A stretch of 64,000 nt of DNA from Patescibacteria group bacterium (lineage in GTDB: Bacteria > Patescibacteriota > Dojkabacteria > JAKAPS01): the NCBI GenBank assembly GCA_025450075.1, contig JANWIC010000016.1, positions 2,005 through 66,004 on the forward strand, in the 5' to 3' direction. Position numbers and translations under genes: made by a program. The notes under the pieces were generated by a model, which worked only from the letters and a program-made list of their open reading frames with translations, did no database searches and was not told the origin of the DNA. Within the stretch, counting starts at the first letter, position 1; each line of letters begins with the position of its first letter. This document shows positions 34,657 through 52,978 of this stretch, piece by piece.

Positions 34657-35147
34657 GAAATTTCTTCTATTGTCTTATGTAATATCTTCTCCTGTTCTTC
34701 TTGTGTAAGGCTTCCTTTTAATGTTTTTGATAATGCAGTTCCAATTAAGGAAGAAATATCACCTTTGATTTGTGCAAACATAGCATTTTTCTCAAGTGAA
34801 ATTTCTTCCCTTGCCTTTTGGATTATTCTATCTGCTTCATCTTTTGCTTCTATTTGAAGTTTTTTAGCAATGATTTCACTTTGTTCGATTGCCTGTTGGA
34901 TAATCCTTTGAGATTCCAACTGCGCTTCATGCAGTACTTTTCGCTGCTGTTCTTCAGCATCTTGCTTTTGTTTTGCGATTAATTCTGAATCCTTAATGGT
35001 TTGTTCAACCATCTGGCGTCTTTTATCAAGAACACGAAGTACAGGCTTATACACAAAAATTCTCAAAATGATCAGAAGAAGCAAAAAGTTTATTGTTGCC
35101 TCAATAAGTTGTATCCAATTAACTCCAAAATTACTTAAAATTTGCAT
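34653..35147 (-). CDS. atpF: Fo ATP synthase subunit b
   Basis: Single N-terminal TM followed by a long charged coiled coil; operon position. Confidence 0.8.
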   Translation of the reverse strand: MQILSNFGVNWIQLIEATINFLLLLIILRIFVYKPVLRVLDKRRQMVEQTIKDSELIAKQKQDAEEQQRKVLHEAQLESQRIIQQAIEQSEIIAKKLQIEAKDEADRIIQKAREEISLEKNAMFAQIKGDISSLIGTALSKTLKGSLTQEEQEKILHKTIEEIS

Positions 35148-35163
35148 AAAAATATTTCAAAAA

Positions 35164-35376
<213 letters not shown>

Positions 35377-35390
35377 TCACCTCCTGTAAC

Positions 35391-36125
35391 TTAATGTAGT
35401 TTTTGCGTTAATATACTTGTAAATGCAAGGGTTAACATGGCAAACACTGCAGCCTGTACAAACCCAACAACAATCTCCAGCCCCATAAATGGTAACGGTA
35501 GTAATAATCCGACAAGACTTGAGAATGTTAAGATAACAATATCACCAGCTAAAATATTTCCATATAACCGGAAAGATAGCGAAATGACTTTTGTAAATTC
35601 TGAAACCAATTCTAATATACCAACAAAAAGATTAATTGGATTTAGACTGAAATATCGTTTTAAATGTTCTACAATTCCCACATACTTGATTGCATAATAT
35701 TGTGTTGCAACTGTTGATATGATAGCAAGTGCAAGTGTAATATTCAAATCACTATTTACCGGTTTTAGTAAAGGAGTAAAAACACCTTTCCCATGCGTAA
35801 ATGAATCAAAAAAACCTACTGTATTAAAGATTGGGAGTAACCCAAACCAGTTTGAAATCAAAATAAAAAGGAAAAATGTTGCAATAAGCGGGAAGAAGTC
35901 CCTTGTCTTCCTATCTTCCCCAACCGTCTCTTGAGCGGTATTGAACATGAATTCAATAATGAACTCTATAATATTTTGAAATTTCCCAGGTATTAAAGAT
36001 ACCTTTCTTGAAAACACATATCCTGTAATGATTAAGAACAAAGATGCAATAAGTGTAGCAAGAAACGTATTTGTAATTGGTATATTCCCTATGTATGCGA
36101 TTTTATCCGCAGTAATCTCTAACAT
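35391..36125 (-). CDS. atpB: Fo ATP synthase subunit a
   Basis: Five TM helices; conserved Arg in ..LSFRLYGNILAGD..; first gene of the atp operon. Confidence 0.9.
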   Translation of the reverse strand: MLEITADKIAYIGNIPITNTFLATLIASLFLIITGYVFSRKVSLIPGKFQNIIEFIIEFMFNTAQETVGEDRKTRDFFPLIATFFLFILISNWFGLLPIFNTVGFFDSFTHGKGVFTPLLKPVNSDLNITLALAIISTVATQYYAIKYVGIVEHLKRYFSLNPINLFVGILELVSEFTKVISLSFRLYGNILAGDIVILTFSSLVGLLLPLPFMGLEIVVGFVQAAVFAMLTLAFTSILTQKLH

Positions 36126-36404
36126 GAATTCATTTAAACAAACGGCTACGTATTATACCATAAAAGTATTTGTTAGCAAATAATATATACGTGCAAGATA
36201 TACATACATATTCCAACTATGGTTCATACGTTGTCTTTTCAATTAAAGTATACTATACTAACTCATCTAAATACTATCCATATGTCTGAATTACGTAAGA
36301 ATTTATCATTAGTGAAATTTCAGGAAGAAATGGAATGTATTTATTCCCTGCGAATGTTTCTAAATGTAGCAGTAATTTCCAATTCATATCATTGTTTTTA
36401 AATC

Positions 36405-37130
36405 ATGAGTAGTAATGGAGAAGATTTTGGTCAAGATGAAAGAGATCTTTTAATGGACTGTACACATCAAGCAGAAGAAATCATTCGATCTTTTCCTCTT
36501 TGTAACTTGCCCTTTAATTCTTTAGTATTTACAAACTGCTCTGGTGAAAAGATTAAATTTACAAGAGGTAAAGATTCTATTAGAATTCTAATTACAGATT
36601 CTAACGGTCAAGAGAAGGTAAAATTCATAACTTCTACAAAGAATAAACTTCCAATTGTAGCCATAGGAGATGAAGATGTTTTATCCAAAAACCTTGAAGC
36701 ACTTCAAAGCTACTTCTCACGTGACAATAGGATTACAGATTATACAGGCTTACTACCCTTAGATTTTATTCCATCGATTGAAGTAGAAAACTGTGAAGAA
36801 ATTGAAACTGATGAAACCATTATAATTGCAGCACATTATGCATATATGATTGCCTTGCACATTGGGAAAAGGGATGGATATTGTATGCGAATTCCAGGCA
36901 CTTATCAAACAGTAGTATTGCAAAAAATTAACGAAAGATTTGAATTAAAGTTACAAACTTCTGATAAAGTAACTTTGGCAAAGATTGCGTTTTCATTAAA
37001 AGATAATATTATTTGTTCTTTAAATGGTGAGGGAGATATAAATGCCCTATATGAAATATTGGATGATGCTTTAGTATTAAGGATATACTTAGGAGTAAGT
37101 TTAGGCAGAGATGAAATTAATAGAAATTAA
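36405..37130 (+). CDS. Hypothetical cytoplasmic protein (241 aa), first of a tandem pair of unknowns
   Basis: ORF track; no signal peptide and no recognised motif. Divergent from the atp operon. Confidence 0.4.
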   Translation: MSSNGEDFGQDERDLLMDCTHQAEEIIRSFPLCNLPFNSLVFTNCSGEKIKFTRGKDSIRILITDSNGQEKVKFITSTKNKLPIVAIGDEDVLSKNLEALQSYFSRDNRITDYTGLLPLDFIPSIEVENCEEIETDETIIIAAHYAYMIALHIGKRDGYCMRIPGTYQTVVLQKINERFELKLQTSDKVTLAKIAFSLKDNIICSLNGEGDINALYEILDDALVLRIYLGVSLGRDEINRN

Positions 37131-37147
37131 CTATTAGTAATCAAACT

Positions 37148-37858
37148 ATGGGAGAGATTTGTAGTCAAGAATTAGATAATTTAAATTCATGGGAAGCAGC
37201 TGCAATGCAAGGTTTTAAAATATATAACCAAATGAATAAACCCGGTTGTATTGGTACTATTGTGCTACAGGTTCCAGATGCTGAAAGAATAATAACGATT
37301 ACATTAGAAGAAAATCAAGTATATAGTATCATTACCGAGCCTCAAGAAAATAATACGACGTTATTAGTATTTCAATCAAATGGAGTTTCATTTAGTCTTG
37401 TAGAATATGGAGGAAATTTAACAGAATTGCTAGGTGATCTAAAAGAAATAATGACAGGACTTACTTCAACTCCACAACAAGTAAGGAGAAATTCTTTAAG
37501 TGGTCGAGATTTAGATAGAAGAAGGAATCTAAAAAGAGCAATTGCATTAGCAAATAATGCATATTACGCAATAGAGGCATATTCCCTTTTATGGAAGGAA
37601 CATCATGATTGGCCAATTGATTTCCCTTATCTTAAAGGTAAAATACAATTCAGCAATCTTGATAATACGTACAGAATATCATATATAGTAGATGGAAATA
37701 TAGAAGCTTTTTTTGCATTTACAGCTTTTGACAATATCACAGATATGAAAGGTATTCGATTAGGAGAAATATATGGAAATACTGCGGCCATTGAAATTGC
37801 TGTTCATTATTTGTTTGATCAAATATATAATGGTGTCTTAAAGCCATCACTAAATTGA
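37148..37858 (+). CDS. Hypothetical cytoplasmic protein (236 aa), second of the tandem pair; possibly a distant paralogue of the first
   Basis: ORF track; similar length and a loosely similar central segment (IAAHYAYMIALHIG vs ALANNAYYAIEAYSLL). Confidence 0.4.
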   Translation: MGEICSQELDNLNSWEAAAMQGFKIYNQMNKPGCIGTIVLQVPDAERIITITLEENQVYSIITEPQENNTTLLVFQSNGVSFSLVEYGGNLTELLGDLKEIMTGLTSTPQQVRRNSLSGRDLDRRRNLKRAIALANNAYYAIEAYSLLWKEHHDWPIDFPYLKGKIQFSNLDNTYRISYIVDGNIEAFFAFTAFDNITDMKGIRLGEIYGNTAAIEIAVHYLFDQIYNGVLKPSLN

Positions 37859-38656
37859 TTACAAGTTAATCCCTTGTTCTTCTAGCAGTTTTTTCATTTG
37901 ATAACGATATGCCCTGCCAATTTCAATTTGTCTTCCAGCACTTGTTTTAATATTTATCCTGATTCCCATTTTCCCATCAGATAAAGATTCAAGTCCTAAG
38001 ACTTCAGTTTTTCCTAATATAAACGGCTTTGTTTTTTCTTCTTGTTCAATATTTTCACCTGCTTGCTGCATTATGGAAATTATTTGATCAACTGGATTGT
38101 TTGCAGAAATGATAAATGTCATATCAAACATTGACCAATCTTTACTCAGGTTTGTAATTTGCGTGATGGAGCTATTAGAAAATGTAGTGACATTTCCAGA
38201 CAAATCACGGATTGTAATAGTTCGAAGGGTAATATCAATAATTACACCGACAAGCAGCCCAACCTGTACGGTATCCCCTACCCCAAATTGGTCTTGGATA
38301 AGAAAGAAAAAACCTGTAATAATGTCTTTCACCAAAGATTGCGCTCCGAAAGACACAGCAAGTCCAAAAATTCCTGCACTTGCAAGAAGTGGCTGGATAT
38401 CAAAAAAATTATTGAGAAGAATAAAGAAGCCAATGATAATGGCAATTGATATTGCCAAGTTATTCTCAACTTCAATTATTGTTTGTACCCGGCGCTGGAT
38501 TCTAGTTTGCGGTTCATTCTTTTGGATTTGTTTGCGTAAATATATCTTATTTATGACAAGAGCAAATACAATACGGATAATGGAAATGATAGCAACAATG
38601 AGTGCAAGATGGATGATACTAGCTATGAATACGTTTAGTGTAAATACTTTCATTAT
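37859..38656 (-). CDS. mscS: Small-conductance mechanosensitive channel (MscS family). The start at 38656 is preferred over 38707, which overlaps mraY.
   Basis: TM3 pore-helix pattern (..AGIFGLAVSFGAQSLVKDIITGFFFLIQDQFGVGD.V) and the beta-domain motif. Confidence 0.75.
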   Translation of the reverse strand: MMKVFTLNVFIASIIHLALIVAIISIIRIVFALVINKIYLRKQIQKNEPQTRIQRRVQTIIEVENNLAISIAIIIGFFILLNNFFDIQPLLASAGIFGLAVSFGAQSLVKDIITGFFFLIQDQFGVGDTVQVGLLVGVIIDITLRTITIRDLSGNVTTFSNSSITQITNLSKDWSMFDMTFIISANNPVDQIISIMQQAGENIEQEEKTKPFILGKTEVLGLESLSDGKMGIRINIKTSAGRQIEIGRAYRYQMKKLLEEQGINL

Positions 38657-39750
38657 ATTAGTGAAATCCACAATGAAATAACAAGAAAGATCATGGAAAA
38701 GATCCAAAATCGCATAACTACCTTCTCTTCACTCCATCCTAACATCTCAAAATGGTGATGTAAAGGCGCCATTAAAAAGATTTTTTTGTCTAAAAACTGC
38801 TTTGCAAGTTTTTGTAAAATAACAGATGCAATTTCAATAATAAATATAAAGCCTGCAAACAAAAGAATAATTTCCCTGTGCAACAAGATGGCAATAGTTG
38901 CCAACATTGCTCCTAACGCAAGAGATCCTACATCTCCCATCTGAAATCTTGCCGGTTTTATATTAAAATACAAATAGGTTAAAAGAGCACCAATAGTGGT
39001 AGCACATAATTCAGCGATTCTTGGATTATTTAATTGTGTAGCAATAATCATAAAAGCTGCGTATGCACTTAATAATAGCCCTCCTGATAATCCATCCATT
39101 CCATCAGATATATTTACCGCATTTGCCATAAATATAACCATAAAAATCACAACCGGGATTAAAAATATACCGAGGTGAATATAAGTACCTCCAGGAATCC
39201 AAAGAAGTGTCCAATGGATTTTAAAGTACATCCAGAATGCAATTATGCATCCTGCTACAAACTGGACAAGCACTTTCTCATGTGGATGCAATCCTGTTCC
39301 AATTCTTGATCCGAAATGGTAAAACATTGATTTATATGCACTCCATGGAATTAACAGGGCGAAATAGAGGCGTCTAGCAGGTTTTGCATGATGCAGCGCC
39401 AGTTTGATTGTTAACCGAAGTTTTCGTACTGGTCGTTTTCTTCCATAGATATTTAACAGATCATCTAATGCTCCAATAATTGCACAAAGCGTTAATACCG
39501 ATAAAGGCAAAAGTGTATAGCTTCTTGATACATTAAAAATACTTGTGATAATTATAATTGTAAGAATAATGATGACACCTCCCATTATAGGCACCCCCGC
39601 TTTTTCCCGTCTGGAAGGAATTTGCGAGAATGTATCATCGTATTCGCCTGATCGGACAATCTTGTATTTATACAAAAGAGAAGTAATAGGAAATGTAATG
39701 ATAAATGATAAGATTAAAGAACCTAATATGTATGTGAGAAGTCTAAACAT
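38653..39750 (-). CDS. mraY: Phospho-N-acetylmuramoyl-pentapeptide transferase (MraY)
   Basis: ANAVNISDGMDGLSGG and the C-terminal APLHHHFEMLGWSEEKVVMRFWIFS are MraY signatures; about 10 TM segments; 365 aa. It lies far from ftsQAZ. Confidence 0.8.
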   Translation of the reverse strand: MFRLLTYILGSLILSFIITFPITSLLYKYKIVRSGEYDDTFSQIPSRREKAGVPIMGGVIIILTIIIITSIFNVSRSYTLLPLSVLTLCAIIGALDDLLNIYGRKRPVRKLRLTIKLALHHAKPARRLYFALLIPWSAYKSMFYHFGSRIGTGLHPHEKVLVQFVAGCIIAFWMYFKIHWTLLWIPGGTYIHLGIFLIPVVIFMVIFMANAVNISDGMDGLSGGLLLSAYAAFMIIATQLNNPRIAELCATTIGALLTYLYFNIKPARFQMGDVGSLALGAMLATIAILLHREIILLFAGFIFIIEIASVILQKLAKQFLDKKIFLMAPLHHHFEMLGWSEEKVVMRFWIFSMIFLVISLWISLI

Positions 39751-40459
39751 GTGTATTTGTTAAAAATAAAGGCCGACGGATTCCATTATCATTTACTCTT
39801 CTTCGGATTAATTCATTTGGTTGATATTTCAATCTTTCAATCTGATTCCAATCCTGATCTGTTATGGATTTAGTATCATCAGTGATTGTTATCTTCCCCA
39901 TACAAACACCTTTTCCAGTTGAGGATTGAATATATTCGATCTCAGCAACTTTCCCCCCATTTTTTTTAATTGTAGTGATCATGACGACATGTTTTCCACC
40001 TGACATTCTGATTAAATCCATTGGCTTTACCTGTGATACAGGTATCTCTTGACAGTTTATCTTTGAAGTTAAGGTATCGGCATTTAACTTTGCGGTATCT
40101 GGTTTAATTGCATACAAAACCAGCAAGAACGGATTTAAAGTGGGACGTTTAAAAAAAGATTTTGCATGTTTTTGAAGTCTTGAAAGGGTAAACTGTTCAT
40201 AAATATCAAGAACAAGTCCTGAACAGTCTATGCCAATATTATTATCTTTTAATAGTGAATATCCATCCTTTTCAGGATATATTTCCTGTAATTCATTGAG
40301 AACTTTTTGTATTTCTTCTTTTCTTCCTTTTCCTTTGTAAACTCTTCTTTTTAAAGAAATGCTTCCTTTACCGATAAAATATGGAACAGGTATAGATAAA
40401 AACCAATCACATAACTGTTGCAAATCTTGAGGGATTGTTTGCGTATCATCTTGGCTCAT
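39743..40459 (-). CDS. Cytoplasmic NlpC/P60-family cysteine peptidase/amidase (papain-like fold) with an N-terminal about 70-aa extension
   Basis: Catalytic Cys motif GIDCSGLV, a His region KPMDLIRMSGGKHVVMI about 75 aa downstream, no signal peptide. It is the last gene of a three-gene minus-strand operon. Confidence 0.6.
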   Translation of the reverse strand: MSQDDTQTIPQDLQQLCDWFLSIPVPYFIGKGSISLKRRVYKGKGRKEEIQKVLNELQEIYPEKDGYSLLKDNNIGIDCSGLVLDIYEQFTLSRLQKHAKSFFKRPTLNPFLLVLYAIKPDTAKLNADTLTSKINCQEIPVSQVKPMDLIRMSGGKHVVMITTIKKNGGKVAEIEYIQSSTGKGVCMGKITITDDTKSITDQDWNQIERLKYQPNELIRRRVNDNGIRRPLFLTNTHV

Positions 40460-41829
40460 GCGGTATCAATAGTTTTTGTTTTTGCCTGTATTGTTGCAAT
40501 AATGTTGAGGATATTATCATCAATATGTTCCATATCTTTTAATACATTTCCTCTTACACTTATCTTTAAAAAGTCATCTCCTTGCCCTATCATTCTACCC
40601 TCAATAGCCTCCAGTATCAATGCCCTTGATGTTGAATATATTTCATCAATTGCGTAGGCATCTTCCTTTTTTGTTACAGATTCAATATCGTAAAGTCCTC
40701 CATATGATTCAAGAACCTGGAATGGTTTTGCATGATTTCTTACAATTAATGCTGATGCATCAATGGGTTGCGCATTATTCTTGTTATATTGTTCGATATC
40801 AATTGAAAATGGAATCTGTAAAAGTTCTAATAAATTGATGACTGCTAATGGAATCTCTTCATTTTCCAGCTGTAGTTTTGTGAAATCCTGGATGGATGCA
40901 GTTTGTCTTGCATTTATCTCAAGAATATATAACTCTTCTCCGGTAATGGAAAAATCAACTCCAAAAAATCCTCTATACCCTAACGTATAGAAATATTCCC
41001 CTAACAGTTTCGTCAATGCTACTGCCTCTTCTCTTATCTGATCAGTAACTCCCAGTTGATACCAATTGTTTCCGCAAGTTTCTCCCCGAAGAGCTCCAAG
41101 TTCCTGTAAACCCGTCATCTGGTTACACAATCCACCCACATAGGTGCCGTTTATTGTTGCAACACCATTTGTTGTGATGAAATGAAATGCGCATGTTTGG
41201 ACAAACTTCATCATCATATTTGTACGAAAATATTCATTCTTGAATGTATCAAACTCTTCTTTCGAATGAATAAAGAATGTGCTATTTCCAGAATGTCCAA
41301 CATCGAACTGGACAACAAAAGATGAACCCAACTCTTTGACTAATGAGTCAAAATCTACTTCAGAAATACGTTTTAAAATTGCTTTCGGCAGATTATCTCC
41401 AAAGCCACCTTCTTGAAGAAGCTGGTATTGGGTGATTTTGTTTTCAATTTTTCCTGCAATTCTTGCATCCGGATTAAGAACAATATTATCTCCTGAAGCA
41501 ACTTCTAAAGCTCTTGAAGGTTTGAAATACATGAGGTGGGCTTTGTTTCTTGTGTTTTTAGTAATATATTCCTGCACTTTCGAATCTTTTATCAGTTGCA
41601 AAGATGAGGAAAGCTCTGGTTGGGTAAGCATTACTTCTATTCCTCTTTCTTCAAGAAGACGAATTGTGTATGAGTTTTGTCCTGTGATGATATAAAAATG
41701 TCTAAGAAGATTTTCCAATCCAAAAGATCTTTCAATATTTTTTGTCAGATAAAAGATTGGCGAGCCAAGTGTCGCTTTGTTTATCATTTCTATATATTCT
41801 CGTATCATTATATTCCGGTTAAAATACAA
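40456..41829 (-). CDS. ATP-grasp family carboxylate-amine ligase (457 aa, with an N-terminal pre-ATP-grasp region)
   Basis: ATP-grasp C-terminal signature ..YILEINARQTASI.. and the upstream Gly-rich/phosphate-binding region (FVVQFDVGHSGNSTFF). It overlaps both neighbouring genes. Confidence 0.6.
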   Translation of the reverse strand: MYFNRNIMIREYIEMINKATLGSPIFYLTKNIERSFGLENLLRHFYIITGQNSYTIRLLEERGIEVMLTQPELSSSLQLIKDSKVQEYITKNTRNKAHLMYFKPSRALEVASGDNIVLNPDARIAGKIENKITQYQLLQEGGFGDNLPKAILKRISEVDFDSLVKELGSSFVVQFDVGHSGNSTFFIHSKEEFDTFKNEYFRTNMMMKFVQTCAFHFITTNGVATINGTYVGGLCNQMTGLQELGALRGETCGNNWYQLGVTDQIREEAVALTKLLGEYFYTLGYRGFFGVDFSITGEELYILEINARQTASIQDFTKLQLENEEIPLAVINLLELLQIPFSIDIEQYNKNNAQPIDASALIVRNHAKPFQVLESYGGLYDIESVTKKEDAYAIDEIYSTSRALILEAIEGRMIGQGDDFLKISVRGNVLKDMEHIDDNILNIIATIQAKTKTIDTA

Positions 41830-42734
41830 ATGGCAGAATGTATCTCATGATTTTTCTTTGCTTCTTTTAAACCTGCAATTGCTAGGGCACTATCATATGA
41901 TATTTCTTTTTTCTCAAAAGAAAGCATATCTTCTAACGCATCTTGTATCTGGTTATCACGGATTGCATAAGCATCTCCCCCGGTTCGCTTGATTAATTCA
42001 ACCACTTTTTGTTCGTGTGGAGTATAGTATGTTGATACTGCTGTTGCAAGAGAAGAATCAGTTGAAATAATCTCATGTGAAAAATGGTCAGCAATTGGAT
42101 GGATCTTAGTCGTTTGAATGGCATAAAGTGGAGGAATATCATCAAGTCCTGCAACTAATCCTAAAAGTCCAGTCCCTGAACTTATGGGCATACATAAAGC
42201 ATCAACATTTTGAGGCAATTGTTTTTGTATTTCTTTCCCTAAACTTGAATATCCCTCTATGGCATTCGGGTCTTTTGATCCCACAAGATTAATCGCTTGA
42301 TTCTCTTTTGCAAATTGAAAGGCATCTTTTCTTGCGCGTGGAGAATAATGAATTGTGCACAAGTCAGTATGCGTCCCTATTATTTCCAATAATCTTTTCC
42401 TTTTATTTTCATCGGTATGAGAAGAAAGGAAAATATCAAGATATACACGATAAAAAATACAATACATTGCTGCAGATATTGCTGCATTTCCCGATGAAGA
42501 TATGACAAAATTATTTTTCCCTTCTTTGATCCAGTGTTGAAGTTGATAGGAAATGGCTCTATCTTTAAAAGATCCTGAAGGGTTTTGTGTCTCATCTTTT
42601 AAATATATATGATTCAAACCATATGCATGTGCAAGATTGACCGCCTCGTAAAGAGGTGTGTTCCCTTCAGCTGGTAAAGGGAGAGATTGAAAATTATTCG
42701 TAAAGTGTGTAGAATTACTACTATTGTTGACCAT
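41808..42734 (-). CDS. PLP-dependent enzyme, fold type II (Trp-synthase-beta / threonine-synthase / cysteine-synthase superfamily)
   Basis: PLP-lysine motif ..LKDETQNPSGSFKDRA.. preceded by GNTPLY; a glycine-rich loop ISSGTGLLGL; 308 aa. Confidence 0.7.
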   Translation of the reverse strand: MVNNSSNSTHFTNNFQSLPLPAEGNTPLYEAVNLAHAYGLNHIYLKDETQNPSGSFKDRAISYQLQHWIKEGKNNFVISSSGNAAISAAMYCIFYRVYLDIFLSSHTDENKRKRLLEIIGTHTDLCTIHYSPRARKDAFQFAKENQAINLVGSKDPNAIEGYSSLGKEIQKQLPQNVDALCMPISSGTGLLGLVAGLDDIPPLYAIQTTKIHPIADHFSHEIISTDSSLATAVSTYYTPHEQKVVELIKRTGGDAYAIRDNQIQDALEDMLSFEKKEISYDSALAIAGLKEAKKNHEIHSAICILTGI

Positions 42735-42931: not shown

Positions 42932-43012
42932 TACACGGAACTATCATAATCCTATTTCTTTGCAATCACAGCAATCTTTAAGTATACTGCTGAATAATTT
43001 ACCATAGATATT

Positions 43013-45775
43013 TTGGGTCATATTCAACCGCAAATAGCACAGATGGAAACACAAGCAATTCCAGAAGGAATGCTTTACGGTACCTCTACACTTCTCGAAG
43101 CATTTCTACAAAATAATGGTGTTGGAACACTTCCAGTTTTTATTTTAGCAGCAGTACAAGCTGGCATAGTTAATTCTGAAGAAGAAGGTATACGCCGTGC
43201 AGTTGAAATTCTATCTCGATTTCAACCCAATGTTGATGTTTTAACTAAATACGGCTCACACTATAGTGATAACTGGCATCCACAAGGTGTTCGAGAATTA
43301 ATTAATACGATACATAGAAGAGAAGGTGAAAAAGTCCTCTATCCTCAAATTATTGCTTCAAGGGTTGGAGCAATTTCCCATGAATGTATTGCCAATTTGC
43401 TCACAGGTAATCTTGCACAATATCCCTCTCCTATTCAAACATCCCACATGCAATCAGAACTTCCAGGATTTGAATCTTTAAAATGTAATAGCATATTTGA
43501 TAGTAATCCAAATATATATGAGGATGCAATAACTAGAAATAATTCTGTATCCGATAAACATTTAGAACTTATTAATGATCATCGCCTTGCAATTCTTGCT
43601 GCGCTTTCTATATCTCCTCCTGATTATTGGAGAGCGAATGAAGCAGCTCGAGAATTAGCTTATCTTCTTATGCCAATATTCCATATTGTAAATAGAAAGC
43701 AGAAAAATCCTATTCAAGAAATACTTCGTCTTACCCATTCATTGGGAGGTATGCTCCCCAGTGTCATGATGAATCTTGCGAATGCCGCTGTTGCATATTA
43801 TGGCACTGATGCATTTAGAATCCCTCGAGCAATATTTGCCGAAGTACCTGTTTTATCGCAGCCAGGTGTTCGTGCGGGTAGAGCAGATCTAGTTGAGGTT
43901 GTTGCAATCAATGGACGTAAGCCTTCTTCTTCCGAAATAGAGCTAATTCGAGCATTTGCAAAAACAGCACGCGGATCGCTAGGATCTATTCATCAAAAAC
44001 TTAAAGAATTGCTCGGTGCGGATATCACATGGGAAATTTCTGACAATAAGTTTGCAATTGGTGATAACAATCCTCGATTCCGTCATCTTGCAATTCCTCG
44101 GGATGCAATAGCAAATGGGCCATTTGGTAAACACGAAATTCAAGTTAAAGCATATCATACTTTAGCAACTGTTGATGTTGCGATGGTATTAAACGATATG
44201 GAAAATCCATTCGGTAATGGTGCAATTAGTTGTGTACATCTACTTTATCGAATTGGAGATACCCTAGATGAAGCTGAAAAGATTACTTTTCAAATGAGTT
44301 CAGAAGAAATGCGAGAGTTTTTCAGAATTCATTATGGTAATCGACATAGTCGTGCAGAGCTTGAAGCTGTTTTTCGCATGTGGGGAGGTGTATTGCTTGC
44401 TGAAGCAAGAAGATATCTTGGTGTAAGTAATATTGTTAGACGTCCTAAGGAGAGCCCTGAATCAACAGGTCAAATGCCACTCATTAATGATGAAACTACT
44501 GGGAAATTTACAAGATTAATTGAAGAATCTCGTGAATTTTATCATCCTGAGAAATTAGAAAGACTTTTTCGTATTGAAGGGAGAAGAAGAAGCGGTGAAC
44601 CTAAATTGGTAATGGATTATAATTTGCTACTCCAATTAATTGTAGCTGGGAAAATTCAAGTGAGTGAAGATTTCGGTCCTTTAATAGGCGGCTTTATCCA
44701 TTGTCCACTTCATGAATTTGTACTTGCCGATCAAGGTTTACCACCTAAACTTGATGAATCTCCTTCATTTCATATTTTTGGCAATGGAAGATGGCATTGT
44801 TTTAGTTGTAATGCAGGAGGATCTATAGATCCTACTTCATTTCCTCCAGGTTGGAAAGGTGGAACAATTAAAGTTCGTACAAGAAAATCAAAAAGACAAC
44901 ATGCAATTACAAATGAAATGTTGGATGAAAGTCAAGTCGCTGTTTTGAATGATCTTTTTTTGATTCTCCAAGAGATATATAAATCCTCTACAAATGCACA
45001 AAACTATTTACAAGAAATCAGAGGATTAACTCCTGAGATATTAGCAAAATATGGAGTTGGATATTGGCCACCTGGTGCTCAGGGAAAAATATTAGAAAAG
45101 CTGATTGAGCAGGGATATACAATGGAGGATATTGATCGTGCAGGAATTAGGGTGCTTGTAAAACCAAAAAGATATAGAGATGAGGAGGGAAATGTATTTA
45201 CTTCTACCCCATACTATTGGTTTCCACTTAATGGTACAGTAGTTTTTAAGATCGGAGATGGTAAGGATGGTGATATGAATTTGTATGGAAGGAATGCATA
45301 TAAGACGCCAAAATCTTTATGGAGAAAAAATCCAAGAACTGGAAAGCCACAAAGGCCACGCGAACATTGGAAACTACAAACAAAAGTTCCTCATGGAGTA
45401 TTTAATCAACAAGTACTTAATGGCGAAATAAAATCAAAAAAAGTTGTCGTATTTGAAGCCGTAATTGATGCGTTGTCATATATGATTTTAACTGGAGAAG
45501 AAGATGTAGTAGCTATCATTGGTACACTAAATCATTATGCAGTAAGAAAGCTAAAAGATCTTGCATTACAAGGTGTACAAATTTGCCTTGCACTGGATAA
45601 CGACAGTACCGGGCAACTGACGATAAAACGGATTATTGCTGAATTAGAATCTTATGGGTGTGGAGAAATGGTATTTAATTATACTGAAATTTTAAAACAG
45701 CTTTTTCAAGAGCTTTCTTCTTTGAAAGATTTAAATGAGGTCCTTCTATTCCGAATTCAAGATCGACGGTCTTGA
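43013..45775 (+). CDS. Large (920 aa) protein. The C-terminal about 370 aa form a DnaG-type primase core (CHC2-like zinc finger plus TOPRIM); the N-terminal about 550 aa are an uncharacterised domain.
   Basis: Zinc-finger segment CPLHEFVLADQGLPPKLDESPSFHIFGNGRWHCFSCNAGGS (compare DnaG CPFH.E.TPSF.V.....YHCFGCG..GN); TOPRIM Glu (VVVFEAVIDALSYM) and DxD (CLALDNDSTGQ). It appears GC-richer than the flanking genes. Confidence 0.6.
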   Translation: MGHIQPQIAQMETQAIPEGMLYGTSTLLEAFLQNNGVGTLPVFILAAVQAGIVNSEEEGIRRAVEILSRFQPNVDVLTKYGSHYSDNWHPQGVRELINTIHRREGEKVLYPQIIASRVGAISHECIANLLTGNLAQYPSPIQTSHMQSELPGFESLKCNSIFDSNPNIYEDAITRNNSVSDKHLELINDHRLAILAALSISPPDYWRANEAARELAYLLMPIFHIVNRKQKNPIQEILRLTHSLGGMLPSVMMNLANAAVAYYGTDAFRIPRAIFAEVPVLSQPGVRAGRADLVEVVAINGRKPSSSEIELIRAFAKTARGSLGSIHQKLKELLGADITWEISDNKFAIGDNNPRFRHLAIPRDAIANGPFGKHEIQVKAYHTLATVDVAMVLNDMENPFGNGAISCVHLLYRIGDTLDEAEKITFQMSSEEMREFFRIHYGNRHSRAELEAVFRMWGGVLLAEARRYLGVSNIVRRPKESPESTGQMPLINDETTGKFTRLIEESREFYHPEKLERLFRIEGRRRSGEPKLVMDYNLLLQLIVAGKIQVSEDFGPLIGGFIHCPLHEFVLADQGLPPKLDESPSFHIFGNGRWHCFSCNAGGSIDPTSFPPGWKGGTIKVRTRKSKRQHAITNEMLDESQVAVLNDLFLILQEIYKSSTNAQNYLQEIRGLTPEILAKYGVGYWPPGAQGKILEKLIEQGYTMEDIDRAGIRVLVKPKRYRDEEGNVFTSTPYYWFPLNGTVVFKIGDGKDGDMNLYGRNAYKTPKSLWRKNPRTGKPQRPREHWKLQTKVPHGVFNQQVLNGEIKSKKVVVFEAVIDALSYMILTGEEDVVAIIGTLNHYAVRKLKDLALQGVQICLALDNDSTGQLTIKRIIAELESYGCGEMVFNYTEILKQLFQELSSLKDLNEVLLFRIQDRRS

Positions 45776-49740: not shown

Positions 49741-50232
49741 GTGGTTATAAATTTAACTACCACAACATGTTGTATGAGATGCCCACATTGTAAACACCAT
49801 GAATCCAAAGTCGTAGATAAGCGAGATATTTTTGATTCGGGTATTATTCGCCGAAGAAGAGAATGTCTGTCTTGTTCAAAACGTTTCACAACTTATGAAA
49901 AAATTGATACGACGGATATTATGGTTATCAAAAAAGATGGAAGAAGAGAATCATTTGATGCTGAGAAATTAAAACGAGGATTAATGCGTGCTTGTGAAAA
50001 ACGTCCTATCAATATGAAACAAATTGATAAGATGACGGATGAAATTGAGGAATATATCCGAAAACTTAATGTTTCAGAAGTTACTTCAGATACCATCGGT
50101 GACCAGGTCGTACAGGCATTACAAAAAATAGATAAGGTAGCTTGTGTAAGATTCGCATCTGTGTATAAATCATTTCAAAATATAACTGAATTTGAAGAAG
50201 AAGTGCAGGCCCTGCTTCAAACTAATCCATAA
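49741..50232 (+). CDS. nrdR: Transcriptional repressor NrdR (zinc ribbon plus ATP-cone). The start is either GTG 49741 or, more likely given the promoter position, ATG 49774 (MRCPHC...).
   Basis: MRCPHCKHHESKVVDKRD...CLSCSKRFTTYE (zinc ribbon) followed by an ATP-cone; it is immediately upstream of nrdAB. Confidence 0.85.
   Translation: MVINLTTTTCCMRCPHCKHHESKVVDKRDIFDSGIIRRRRECLSCSKRFTTYEKIDTTDIMVIKKDGRRESFDAEKLKRGLMRACEKRPINMKQIDKMTDEIEEYIRKLNVSEVTSDTIGDQVVQALQKIDKVACVRFASVYKSFQNITEFEEEVQALLQTNP
49762..49773 (+). promoter_or_regulatory. Perfect 12-bp palindrome ACAACATGTTGT, an NrdR-box-like operator candidate, abutting the ATG of nrdR
   Basis: Palindrome read directly; it is similar to the NrdR box consensus (acaCwAtATaTwGtgt). 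Confidence 0.3.
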
Positions 50233-50251
50233 TTATTTTATCTGTACTGCC

Positions 50252-52978
50252 ATGATTGACACAATAAAAAAAAGAGATGGAAGAATAGTACGATTTGATA
50301 GAGAAAAAATCGAACGGGCAATTACGAAAGCATATATTGCAACCAGTACAGAGATAAATACGGATCTGATAACACATATCACGGATAGTGTCATCTCCGA
50401 CCTGTCAAAACATCAAGATAGAACTCCTGAAGTTGAAGAAATACAAGATTTAGTTGAGAGACAAATTGCTTCAAGTGGACTTTTTGAAGTTGCAAAAGCA
50501 TATATTTTGTATCGACATGAACATGAAAAAATACGTGTAGAAGAAAAACTTGAAAAAATAGAAACACGCCAACTGCAGGTTGTTTCACGGGATGGTTCCT
50601 CTTCTCCATTTTCACCATCAATCGTTCGAAACTTCCTAAAAAAAATTACGCATGAGAGGCTTTCGGCTACTGAAATATTAGAAATTATTCATGAAATAAC
50701 AAATGGTGTTTATGATGGTATTTCATCAAAAGAAATAACCAGAATTATCATTATGTCATTTATTGCAAGGGTGGAGCGAGACCCGATCTATTCTAAAATT
50801 GCAGCAGATATTCTTTTGAATGCAATGTATAAAGATGTCATTGGGGTTGATGAATTTGATAAAAACTTTGAAAAGAAATATCGTGAATCACTAGAGTCAC
50901 AAATGAAATTGGGGGTTTCAATCCAGCGCCTTGATCCAAGATTATTGGAATATGATTATGCAATGTTAAGTAAGGCGATGGTACTTAATCGAGATCATAT
51001 CTTCAATTATATGGGGATAGAAACCTTGTATGAGAGATATTTTACGCATGATTTTGAACAACATGTCATAGAACTTCCACAACATTACTATATGAGACTG
51101 GCTATGGGATTTGCTTTAAACGAAAAAGATAAGAACTCATGTTGCCTCGACTTCTATAACCTGCTTTCAACACTTCGATATGTTCCATCAACACCAACCC
51201 AGTTTCATGCAGGAACACTTCATCCACAGATGAGTTCATGCTATTTAACGACGGTAGAAGATGACCTTGCACATATTTTTAAATGTATTGGTGATAATGC
51301 CCAATTATCAAAATGGTCTGGAGGTCTAGGAAATGATTGGACAAATATTCGAGGAACCGGAGCTTTAATTAAAGGAACAAATGTCGGAAGCCAGGGAGTG
51401 ATCCCCTTCTTAAAGATTGATGATGCTACAACTGCCGCCATTAACAGAAGCGGAAAAAGACGAGGTGCTGCTTGTGTCTATCTTGAAACATGGCATTATG
51501 ATATTGAAGAATTTATTGAACTGCGAAAAAATACCGGAGATGAAAGAAGAAGAATCCATGATACTGATACAGCAAACTGGATTCCTGACCTATTCATGAA
51601 AAGAGTATTGGAGAATGGCGATTGGACATTATTTTCTCCTGATGAAACTCCTGAACTTCACCATGTATATGGTAAACAATTTGAAAAAATATATACCTCA
51701 TACGAGAAAAAAGCTGAAGAAGGAAAAATCCAACTTTATAAAAAAATTAGCGCACAATACCTTTGGCGGAAAATGATTAGTATGTTGTTTGAAACGGGTC
51801 ATCCATGGATAACTTTTAAAGACCCATGCAATCTTCGTTCTCCTCAAGATCACGTAGGAGTAGTTCATTCATCAAACTTATGTACTGAAATCACCCTTAA
51901 TACATCTGCAGATGAAACCGCTGTGTGTAATTTAGGCTCCATTAACCTTCCTGTCCATATGGGTAAAAACGGTAAAATTAATAAGAAAATGCTTAGCCAG
52001 ACAATTTCTTTTGCGATGCGGATGCTTGATAATATTATCGACTATAATTTTTATCCCACAATAGAAGCAGAACATGCAAACTATCGACATCGTCCTGTTG
52101 GACTTGGCATTATGGGGTTACAAGATATTTTCTTCGTGATGGGAATGCGTTTTGACAGTAACAAAGCTGTGGAATTTTCTGATGAACTGATGGAGTTTGT
52201 ATCTTATCATGCTATTCTTTCTTCTTCCCGCTTAGCAAAAGAAAAGGGACAATACCAAAGCTACCCTGGTTCAAAATGGGATAGAGGTATATTCCCCATT
52301 GATACGCTCGCCATTCTTGAAAAAGAACGAGGTATGAAAACAGGTATATCAAAAACTGGAAAGATGGATTGGACTCCTGTTCGGGAACATGTGAAAAAAT
52401 ATGGGATGAGAAATTCAAATTGTATGGCAATCGCTCCAACTGCAACTATATCAACAATTGCAGGAACATATCCATCAATTGAACCGATTTATGAGAACCT
52501 GTATGTAAAGTCAAATCAAACTGGGGAGTTTACAATTATGAATGAGTATCTGGTTAAAGATTTAAAGAAATTGCGTCTTTGGAATGAAGCAATCAGGACA
52601 AAATTAAAATATTTTGATGGATCTTTGCAAAAAATCCCTGAAATACCACAAAATTTAAAAGATATGTATAAAGAAGCTTTTGAGATTGATCCATTATGGG
52701 TTATTAAGCATGCGGCATATCGGGGGAAATGGATTGATCAGTCGCAATCTATCAATATATTTTCGTCAACTGTTTCTGGAAAAGAAATTTCTGATATCTA
52801 TATGGCAGCGTGGCAAATGGGATTAAAAACCACCTATTACCTGAGAAGTTTAGGAGCATCTAGAATTGAAAAAAGTACAATAGATATAAATAAGAAGTAT
52901 GAGAATGAAGAAGAAATAATTGTTGAAGAAATTAAAGCTTGCAGAATCGATGATCCTGAATGCGAAGCTTGCCAATGA
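50252..52978 (+). CDS. nrdA: Class I ribonucleoside-diphosphate reductase alpha subunit (with N-terminal ATP-cones)
   Basis: ATP-cone start MIDTIKKRDGRIVRFDREKIERAI, catalytic-core motifs (..SNLCTEI..; C-terminal CxxC ..CEAC), about 909 aa from the ATG at 50252. Confidence 0.9.
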   Translation: MIDTIKKRDGRIVRFDREKIERAITKAYIATSTEINTDLITHITDSVISDLSKHQDRTPEVEEIQDLVERQIASSGLFEVAKAYILYRHEHEKIRVEEKLEKIETRQLQVVSRDGSSSPFSPSIVRNFLKKITHERLSATEILEIIHEITNGVYDGISSKEITRIIIMSFIARVERDPIYSKIAADILLNAMYKDVIGVDEFDKNFEKKYRESLESQMKLGVSIQRLDPRLLEYDYAMLSKAMVLNRDHIFNYMGIETLYERYFTHDFEQHVIELPQHYYMRLAMGFALNEKDKNSCCLDFYNLLSTLRYVPSTPTQFHAGTLHPQMSSCYLTTVEDDLAHIFKCIGDNAQLSKWSGGLGNDWTNIRGTGALIKGTNVGSQGVIPFLKIDDATTAAINRSGKRRGAACVYLETWHYDIEEFIELRKNTGDERRRIHDTDTANWIPDLFMKRVLENGDWTLFSPDETPELHHVYGKQFEKIYTSYEKKAEEGKIQLYKKISAQYLWRKMISMLFETGHPWITFKDPCNLRSPQDHVGVVHSSNLCTEITLNTSADETAVCNLGSINLPVHMGKNGKINKKMLSQTISFAMRMLDNIIDYNFYPTIEAEHANYRHRPVGLGIMGLQDIFFVMGMRFDSNKAVEFSDELMEFVSYHAILSSSRLAKEKGQYQSYPGSKWDRGIFPIDTLAILEKERGMKTGISKTGKMDWTPVREHVKKYGMRNSNCMAIAPTATISTIAGTYPSIEPIYENLYVKSNQTGEFTIMNEYLVKDLKKLRLWNEAIRTKLKYFDGSLQKIPEIPQNLKDMYKEAFEIDPLWVIKHAAYRGKWIDQSQSINIFSSTVSGKEISDIYMAAWQMGLKTTYYLRSLGASRIEKSTIDINKKYENEEEIIVEEIKACRIDDPECEACQ

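Follow-up and report, generated by a model that had tools for sequence, protein, structure and literature searches.

We analyzed a 64,000-nucleotide (nt) stretch of contig JANWIC010000016.1, from assembly GCA_025450075.1 of a Patescibacteria group bacterium, and refer to this whole stretch as the window. It holds an open reading frame (ORF) for a protein of 920 amino acids (aa) in which a nuclease-like N-terminal domain (N-domain) precedes a DnaG-type primase module (Table 1). By its gene content, the window is ordinary bacterial chromosome, with uvrA, uvrB, ftsA, ftsZ, dnaE, the RNase HII gene, gatA together with a homologue of the gene that adjoins gatA in locus L016, F-type ATP synthase genes, nrdR and a class I ribonucleotide reductase, htrA, and a 2-oxoacid:ferredoxin oxidoreductase. 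The ORF starts with TTG, and an alternative in-frame ATG lies at 43043. A pair of promoter-like hexamers is found just upstream of it; the region has no more such sites than expected from shuffled sequence.

Table 1. Features of the fusion gene, of its surroundings in the window, and of related loci (L numbers); window positions unless a locus is named
Feature	Position	Strand	Basis or remark
Complete ORF, nuclease-like N-domain plus DnaG-type primase module	43013..45775	+	920 aa, uninterrupted
N-terminal helical region, aa 1-130	43013..43402	+	Model secondary structure
Invariant G119xxxH123 motif	43367-43381	+	Counterpart of RecB nuclease motif I (GxxLHxxxE)
Predicted PD-(D/E)XK (RecB-type) nuclease core, aa 247-470	43751..44422	+	Model, Foldseek, conservation
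E277 and G289-R-A-D292 in predicted nuclease core	43877-43888 (G289-D292)	+	Residue conservation
D344-N-K346...G350-D351 in predicted nuclease core	44042-44065	+	Residue conservation
H374..Q377..Y381 in predicted nuclease core	44132-44155	+	Residue conservation
Small alpha/beta linker domain, aa 495-555	44495..44677	+	Model: helix 495-506, strands 519-524 and 530-534, helix 536-544
CHC2 zinc ribbon, DnaG type (C564, H567, C596, C599)	44690..44827	+	Motifs; 1d0q and 2au3 profile matches
N-subdomain of primase RNA-polymerase domain (DNAG_N-like; YGR760, H785-W-K787-L)	44945..45412	+	Pfam and PDB profiles
TOPRIM domain (E815, D862xD864, D906)	45440..45742	+	Toprim_2; protein ends at aa 920
Promoter-like hexamers TTGCAA-17-TATACT	42960..42988	+	∼25 nt 5' of ORF; consensus match only
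LysW-like zinc-ribbon ORF, 56 aa	42761-42931	+	PF21344, E 1e-11; directly 5' of primase gene
PLP-dependent enzyme, ATP-grasp, and NlpC/P60-like genes	40456-42734	-	Divergent from LysW-like ORF
Cytochrome P450 gene	45757-47181	-	Convergent; 19-nt overlap with primase ORF 3' end (45757-45775)
nrdR	49741-50232	+	5' of reductase gene, ORFs overlap 41 nt
Class I ribonucleotide reductase large subunit, two ATP-cone domains	50192-52978	+	
Large ORF, 497 aa	25879-27372	+	Directly 3' of dnaE; no Pfam/NCBIfam match
Large ORF, 474 aa	54046-55470	+	Directly 3' of ribonucleotide reductase genes; no Pfam/NCBIfam match
UvrA ORF, 1066 aa	494-3694	-	UvrA models match from residue 120 on
Stand-alone N-domain gene, 496 aa	L082 10001-11491		No primase half nearby
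Stand-alone N-domain gene, 521 aa	L084 888-2453		No primase half nearby; small GIY-YIG gene directly upstream
Fusion gene P0061	L131 10001-12646		
Canonical dnaG-rpoD pair	L131 16319-19243		

A DnaG-type primase module without a helicase-binding domain

The C-terminal 360 aa form a complete DnaG-type primase module, with a CHC2 zinc ribbon, an RNA-polymerase subdomain, and a TOPRIM domain. The zinc motif (CPLHEF...SPSFHIF..GRWHCFSCNAGG) spans residues 564 to 603, with C564-P-L-H567, SPSF, and C596-F-S-C599 in this order, and carries a lineage-specific insertion of ∼10 aa between the His and the SPSF motif. The TOPRIM motifs follow ∼215 aa further toward the C terminus, with the glutamate, E815, in VVVFEAVIDALSY and the DxD in LALDNDSTGQ, corresponding to D862 and D864. 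The protein ends 56 aa past the DxD, and the Pfam models DnaB_bind and DnaG_DnaB_bind matched neither the window protein nor its relatives. The first-pass annotation of this DNA, made from its letters alone, had described a DnaG-type core (zinc finger plus TOPRIM) behind a large unrecognized N-terminal domain and had noted the lack of a C-terminal DnaB-binding domain, and both descriptions are borne out.

Profile searches gave a graded picture. Toprim_2 from Pfam matches the window protein with an E value of 2e-12, while DNAG_N (residues 658 to 715, E 8e-4) and Zn_ribbon_DnaG (E 0.24) stay below threshold in this protein and are found in relatives, the former with E values of 1e-10 to 3e-8 and the latter significantly. 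PHROG 47, "DNA primase," matches residues 583 to 882 (E 4e-12). Against PDB sequences, the family profile aligns with residues 34 to 316 of the Aquifex DnaG structure 2au3, covering the zinc-binding and polymerase domains (E 1e-25), and with the zinc-binding domain 1d0q (E 8e-10); it also matches other DnaG structures and, weakly, T7 gp4.

The zinc ligands, R760, H785, K787, E815, D862, D864, and D906 are kept in 42 to 47 of 47 homologues: the zinc-ribbon cysteines in all 47, the histidine in 42, and the TOPRIM acidic residues in 44 to 47. The window protein retains every one of these residues and departs from the family at three conserved positions (D79K, R742T, and P746K). Judged by residue conservation, family members have a catalytically intact primase half.

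The N-terminal domain is predicted to adopt a RecB-type nuclease fold

Residues 1 to 555 matched no model in Pfam, NCBIfam, PHROGs, or PADLOC and no PDB sequence, in keeping with the earlier remark that these ∼550 residues carry no recognized motif. An AlphaFold2 model of residues 1 to 555, built from an alignment of 85 homologues, reached a pLDDT of 87.4 and a pTM of 0.89. The model consists of a helical N-terminal region, a disordered loop (∼140 to 170), further helices, an alpha/beta core, a disordered linker, and a small alpha/beta domain at residues 495 to 555. The core, where pLDDT is mostly >90, has strands at 274 to 279, 290 to 299, 338 to 347, 405 to 413, and 422 to 426 with flanking helices, and a 45-aa two-helix insert separates its strands 2 and 3, that is, the strand carrying the Asp and the strand carrying the (D/E)xK. 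The small linker domain is present in the fusions; stand-alone N-domain proteins lack it and end near residue 480 of the alignment.

Searched against predicted viral structures with Foldseek, the model found mostly PD-(D/E)XK, RecB-family, Cas4-like, and RecE nucleases among its best matches, with probabilities up to 0.98 to 0.99 and E values from 8e-4. Against the PDB, the four best matches were to the Argonaute-associated Cas4-family protein ACE1, with human Exo5 and the RecB nuclease domain ranked lower. The residues conserved among homologues point the same way. G119, H123, D292, and K346 are found in 120 of 120 sequences, E277 in 118 of 120, D/E344 in 119 of 120, Q377 in 117 of 119, and Y381 in 119 of 119. 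In nine aligned RecB nuclease domains the invariant residues are G22/H26, E90, G134/D137, D150/K152, and Q180/Y184, and the near-invariant residues of the N-domain follow the same order. As read from sequence, these almost invariant residues are the set expected of a RecB-type active site.

Members of the Cas4 family bind an Fe-S cluster through four conserved cysteines (PMC5704561). Such a cluster is not conserved here, as every column of the N-domain alignment has 17% Cys or less among 120 sequences, and the N-domain is therefore not Cas4 proper.

Several results weigh against a RecB-type assignment. The PDB Foldseek matches of the model are not significant, with low TM-scores of 0.15 to 0.41. 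The N-domains of 12 members found nothing in Pfam at E ≤ 10, PDDEXK_1 and Cas_Cas4 included, and a PDB profile search with the N-domain was likewise empty. In hhalign, the N-domain and the RecB nuclease profile gave an E value of 0.15, and only motif II (G-x-I-D) was aligned. Taking model and conservation together with these results, we consider it probable that the N-domain has a RecB-type PD-(D/E)XK nuclease fold.

The fusion defines a family from uncultivated bacteria

Searching 1.84 billion representatives of clusters at 50% identity with HMMER gave 210 matches. We used separate family profiles for the N half (residues 1 to 555) and the C half (residues 556 to 920), which the window protein matches with E values of 1.6e-109 and 2.1e-74, respectively. 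More than 110 representatives of 850 to 980 aa match both profiles over their full length (E 1e-50 to 1e-165), while canonical DnaGs match the C profile only (E 1e-18 to 1e-37). A further ∼11 proteins of 475 to 520 aa carry the N-domain alone, and the two that we checked are real stand-alone genes (Table 1), one of them on a 215-kb NCBI contig; genomes with such genes must get primase activity from another gene. The single apparent C-only protein proved to be cut by a contig end. Matches of other length or architecture include P0105 (1159 aa), with a weak N-domain and a primase within a longer protein, and P0060 (817 aa); P0108 (2203 aa) has a short TOPRIM match to the window protein and matches neither family profile.

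The first-pass annotation had raised the question of N-domain homologues occurring elsewhere, on their own or in phages and plasmids. They do occur alone, as described above; none was found in 50,697 phage records, and 72,556 plasmid records matched the full-length protein through its primase part only. We also searched with a back-translated DWKFA[VI]GD pattern, which covers about one-third of the family members. It had two matches in 2.9 million viral contigs, both due to chance, and in metagenome contigs it marked 43 stretches, 21 of which carry true family genes in DNA of 36% to 63% GC. According to the record names, some of these stretches derive from 0.1-μm-filtered groundwater or from an aquifer data set. 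In the literature we found no description of a fusion between a RecB-like nuclease and a DnaG primase. The proteins form a conserved family of uncultivated bacteria that has so far gone undescribed, and some of its members, at least, map to Patescibacteria-like genomes. Both parts belong to known superfamilies, and what is new is their fusion, not either fold.

The gene is native in composition and chromosomal in context

The gene had been described as GC-richer than its neighbors and possibly of horizontal, plasmid, or phage origin. A local GC bump does exist, with values of 0.445 to 0.45 in 200-nt windows between 43700 and 44000, in the first part of the predicted nuclease core. By codon position, this stretch has a GC1 of 0.60, a GC2 of 0.455, and a GC3 of 0.255, so that the bump reflects Ala, Arg, and Gly codons and not foreign DNA. 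The description does not hold for the gene as a whole, whose GC of 0.370 compares with 0.362 ± 0.023 for 47 window ORFs and whose GC3 of 0.193 lies below the window mean of 0.261. Tetranucleotide usage, which had been proposed as a check, is ordinary (z = +0.31 for the distance to the window average, rank 41 of 123 equal-size windows). The N-domain is indeed richer in Ala, Arg, and Gly, as had been noted, although modestly (0.225 versus 0.177 ± 0.025) and mainly in Arg. The gene is compositionally native.

The compositionally most deviant part of the window lies elsewhere, at 35000 to 39300, with a GC of ∼0.31 and a tetranucleotide distance higher than in any other part. Two ORFs lie side by side in it (36405 to 37130 and 37148 to 37858; GC 0.313), neither with a Pfam match. 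If foreign or fast-evolving DNA is to be sought, this stretch is a better place than the primase gene.

The neighbors of the family gene in related loci are housekeeping genes in a loosely conserved order that amounts to residual synteny. GroEL lies ∼8 to 9 kb upstream in three loci, ThyX-LemA adjoins the gene in three related loci, and atpB does so in one other. Such neighborhoods are in line with vertical inheritance of a chromosomal gene. One contig of 51.8 kb, L131, has P0061, a family member, situated 3.7 kb upstream of a 569-aa canonical dnaG, and rpoD comes directly after this dnaG; this dnaG and rpoD are 50% and 81% identical, respectively, to those of a metagenome-assembled genome labeled Candidatus Saccharibacteria, and the next-best matches are to other Patescibacteria. 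In at least one genome, therefore, the housekeeping primase gene is accompanied by the fusion as a second, primase-like gene. The suggestion that the window gene is not the housekeeping dnaG is thus probably right, and we regard it as probably a compositionally native chromosomal gene that is neither horizontally acquired nor the housekeeping primase. The interval between the fusion gene and dnaG-rpoD on L131 holds an Obg GTPase gene, read from the opposite strand, together with a pair of ABC transporter genes, an arrangement that is possibly a remnant of in situ dnaG duplication.

Other features of the window

The gene content of the window is richer than that of typical Patescibacteria, with an LCP protein, DsbA-like proteins, a P450, and a 2-oxoacid oxidoreductase, and taken by itself this content may point to a neighboring lineage. 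A P450 is unusual in lineages with small genomes, where the majority of the primase family's relatives seem to be found; here its gene converges on the primase gene. On the other side of the primase gene, the LysW-like ORF and the genes divergent from it could be a small cluster of the amino-group-carrier-protein type; the ORF lacks what we take to be the usual acidic, EDWGE-like C terminus of such proteins. The UvrA ORF has either a 120-aa N-terminal extension or an over-long reading frame from an upstream GTG. Two further large ORFs, next to dnaE and to the ribonucleotide reductase genes, are listed in Table 1.

Discussion

We favor, with moderate confidence, the reading that the gene is a native, vertically inherited chromosomal fusion encoding an accessory nuclease-primase that works beside the replicative dnaG and is neither its replacement nor mobile cargo. 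The observations on which we build are the architecture, the residue conservation, the native composition, the chromosomal context, and the coexistence with dnaG-rpoD in one relative. An accessory role is the best reading of the dnaG-rpoD pair on L131, the missing helicase-binding domain, and the N-only versions taken together. There are also points on the other side. Coexistence with a canonical dnaG was seen on a single contig, which belongs to a different organism, and the window protein is the most divergent member of the family, with 25 to 30% identity to all others. Its Thr at the family-conserved position Arg742 may mean that its primase is weakened. None of the relatives' loci revealed a recurrent operon partner that would hint at a pathway.

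The divergence of the window protein also bears on a different reading, in which the fusion has replaced the canonical dnaG as the only, replicative primase of its lineage and gains access to the fork without a DnaB-binding tail. For such an outlier the L131 result need not carry over; all of its TOPRIM and zinc residues are intact, it sits in native chromosomal sequence with dnaE, the ribonucleotide reductase, and nrdR within 25 kb, and a primase profile found no second primase in the 64-kb window. These 64 kb, however, are a small part of the genome. We consider this reading unlikely, given the canonical dnaG-rpoD on the same contig as a family gene in a related genome, the absence of a helicase-binding domain, the N-only versions in other genomes, and a family size of ∼125 clusters at 50% identity, far below what a replication gene present throughout a large clade would be expected to have. 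In a bolder version, the replicative primase would bring a RecB-type nuclease into the replisome, perhaps to process primers or flaps, and the family would be a new "cut-and-prime" class of replication and repair enzymes in bacteria; this seems to us quite unlikely as well. It is also conceivable that the N-domain is a nuclease fold used only for binding DNA or protein, for instance to recruit the primase to DNA structures. Its similarity to active nucleases is undetectable by sequence, a two-helix insert interrupts its core, and inactive PD-(D/E)XK domains are known in other proteins. The His, Glu, Asp, Asp/Glu-x-Lys, and Gln...Tyr residues are nevertheless kept in 117 to 120 of 120 sequences, stand-alone forms included, which is the pattern expected of a selected active site and makes a noncutting domain doubtful.

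A role as an anti-phage defense effector, in which the nuclease and a primase-like TOPRIM module would degrade or mark invading DNA, was considered as well. In PADLOC, the primase part hits models of DnaG-like proteins that accompany defense reverse transcriptases (E 5e-18 to 7e-23), PD-(D/E)XK and TOPRIM domains are common in defense systems, and the best PDB fold match is an Argonaute-associated protein. The PADLOC match is, however, confined to the generic primase domain, with no match for the N-only proteins; the neighbors are housekeeping genes and not defense islands, with no conserved partner gene, and the full primase zinc ribbon and polymerase subdomain are kept, unlike in nuclease-type TOPRIM defense proteins. 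Such a role is therefore improbable. Least credible of all is a primase or replication initiator left behind by a plasmid, phage, or integrative element, which we regard as very improbable. The local GC bump could be taken in its favor, as could the weak best matches, which include the phage primase PHROG 47 and a reverse-transcriptase-associated DnaG-like model (63 bits), and a tRNA-Val gene that is found 3 kb downstream, points its 3' end toward the primase gene, and had been named as a candidate attachment (att) site. We found no integrase in the 64-kb window and no att-like repeat of the tRNA-Val 3' end flanking the gene, the sole match being an 11-nt chance identity within the zinc-finger codons of the ORF, and the P450 gene and a Wzy-type ligase gene separate the tRNA from the primase gene. 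GC, GC3, and tetranucleotide usage are those of the window, the relatives sit amid housekeeping genes with residual synteny, and the family was found neither in the phage and plasmid records nor in viral contigs scanned with a pattern that covers about one-third of its members, so that the proposed horizontal origin is not upheld.

For the accessory nuclease-primase, a working order of events can be suggested. RecB-type nuclease domains usually work by threading a single-stranded end to a metal site, and the zinc ribbon and polymerase domain of DnaG need a single-stranded template. A fusion of the two that lacks the helicase-docking tail suggests an enzyme that captures or creates a single-stranded end or flap and primes there. 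The ∼470 N-terminal residues, with a predicted RecB-type PD-(D/E)XK fold and near-invariant His123, Glu277, Asp292, Asp/Glu344, Lys346, and Gln377/Tyr381, are joined through the small linker domain to a 360-residue DnaG-type primase that has lost its helicase-binding domain. Acting independently of the DnaB helicase, the protein would thread or cut a single-stranded DNA end or flap with its nuclease domain, and the tethered primase would then make a short RNA primer on the exposed single strand. Such "cut-and-prime" activity may serve in replication restart, in gap or end repair, or in the conversion of incoming single-stranded DNA. The two catalytic activities, the link between them, and the pathway that they would serve are inferred.

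Compared with known systems, the primase half shares with DnaG (TIGR01391/COG0358; 2au3, 1dd9, 4e2k) the CHC2 zinc ribbon, a DNAG_N-type subdomain (FPL...YGR...K-L), the TOPRIM Glu, the DxD, and the third Asp. It differs in that its zinc ribbon starts at residue 564 and not at the N terminus, in having no DnaB-binding domain, in a gene that does not adjoin rpoD, and in a score of 45 bits against the cutoff of 283.6 of the NCBIfam dnaG equivalog TIGR01391, which is not reached. With the RecB-family nucleases (the RecB C-terminal domain, AddA/AddB, Exo5, Cas4, ACE1, phage RecB-like proteins, and RecE), the N-domain shares the predicted fold and the motif order of G..H, a Glu on strand 1, G.(I)D, (D/E)xK, and Q...Y. 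It lacks significant sequence or profile similarity to them, has the 45-aa helical insert between the Asp and (D/E)xK strands, does not conserve the four-Cys Fe-S module of Cas4, AddB, and Exo5, and has a primase instead of a helicase as its fusion partner.

A DnaG-type primase covalently joined to a second DNA-processing enzyme is also found in the T7 gp4 primase-helicase and in Twinkle, and T7 gp4 structures and PHROG 47/239 give weak TOPRIM matches to the fusion. In those proteins the partner is a helicase C-terminal of the primase, whereas here it is a predicted nuclease on the N-terminal side, and unlike the primase fusions of phages, plasmids, and organelles, the present gene is chromosomal, and the searches of phage, plasmid, and viral collections did not turn up its family. 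LigD of bacterial nonhomologous end joining, which combines end processing with de novo or template-dependent synthesis in one polypeptide, offers a conceptual analogy only, as it is made of an archaeo-eukaryotic-type primase-polymerase, a phosphoesterase, and a ligase, none of them homologous to a domain of the fusion.

Bacterial primases are regarded as uniform, combining a zinc ribbon with a polymerase domain and a tail that binds the helicase. The family described here departs from this plan while being conserved and chromosomal, with both predicted active sites under strong selection. If the predicted coupling of nuclease and primase is real, a function could be given to a domain of 470 residues that is missing from all current sequence libraries. 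For annotation, such genes should not be called dnaG, and local GC bumps driven by amino acid content should not be read as horizontal transfer, an inference that is corrected here for the window gene. The fusion is a well-defined, conserved, and testable candidate two-enzyme protein, in which a predicted RecB-type nuclease is coupled to a DnaG primase that is unable to dock on DnaB in the known way and that appears to be a second primase beside the normal one. If this coupling is real, it would provide small-genome uncultivated bacteria with a helicase-independent route of re-priming or end processing.

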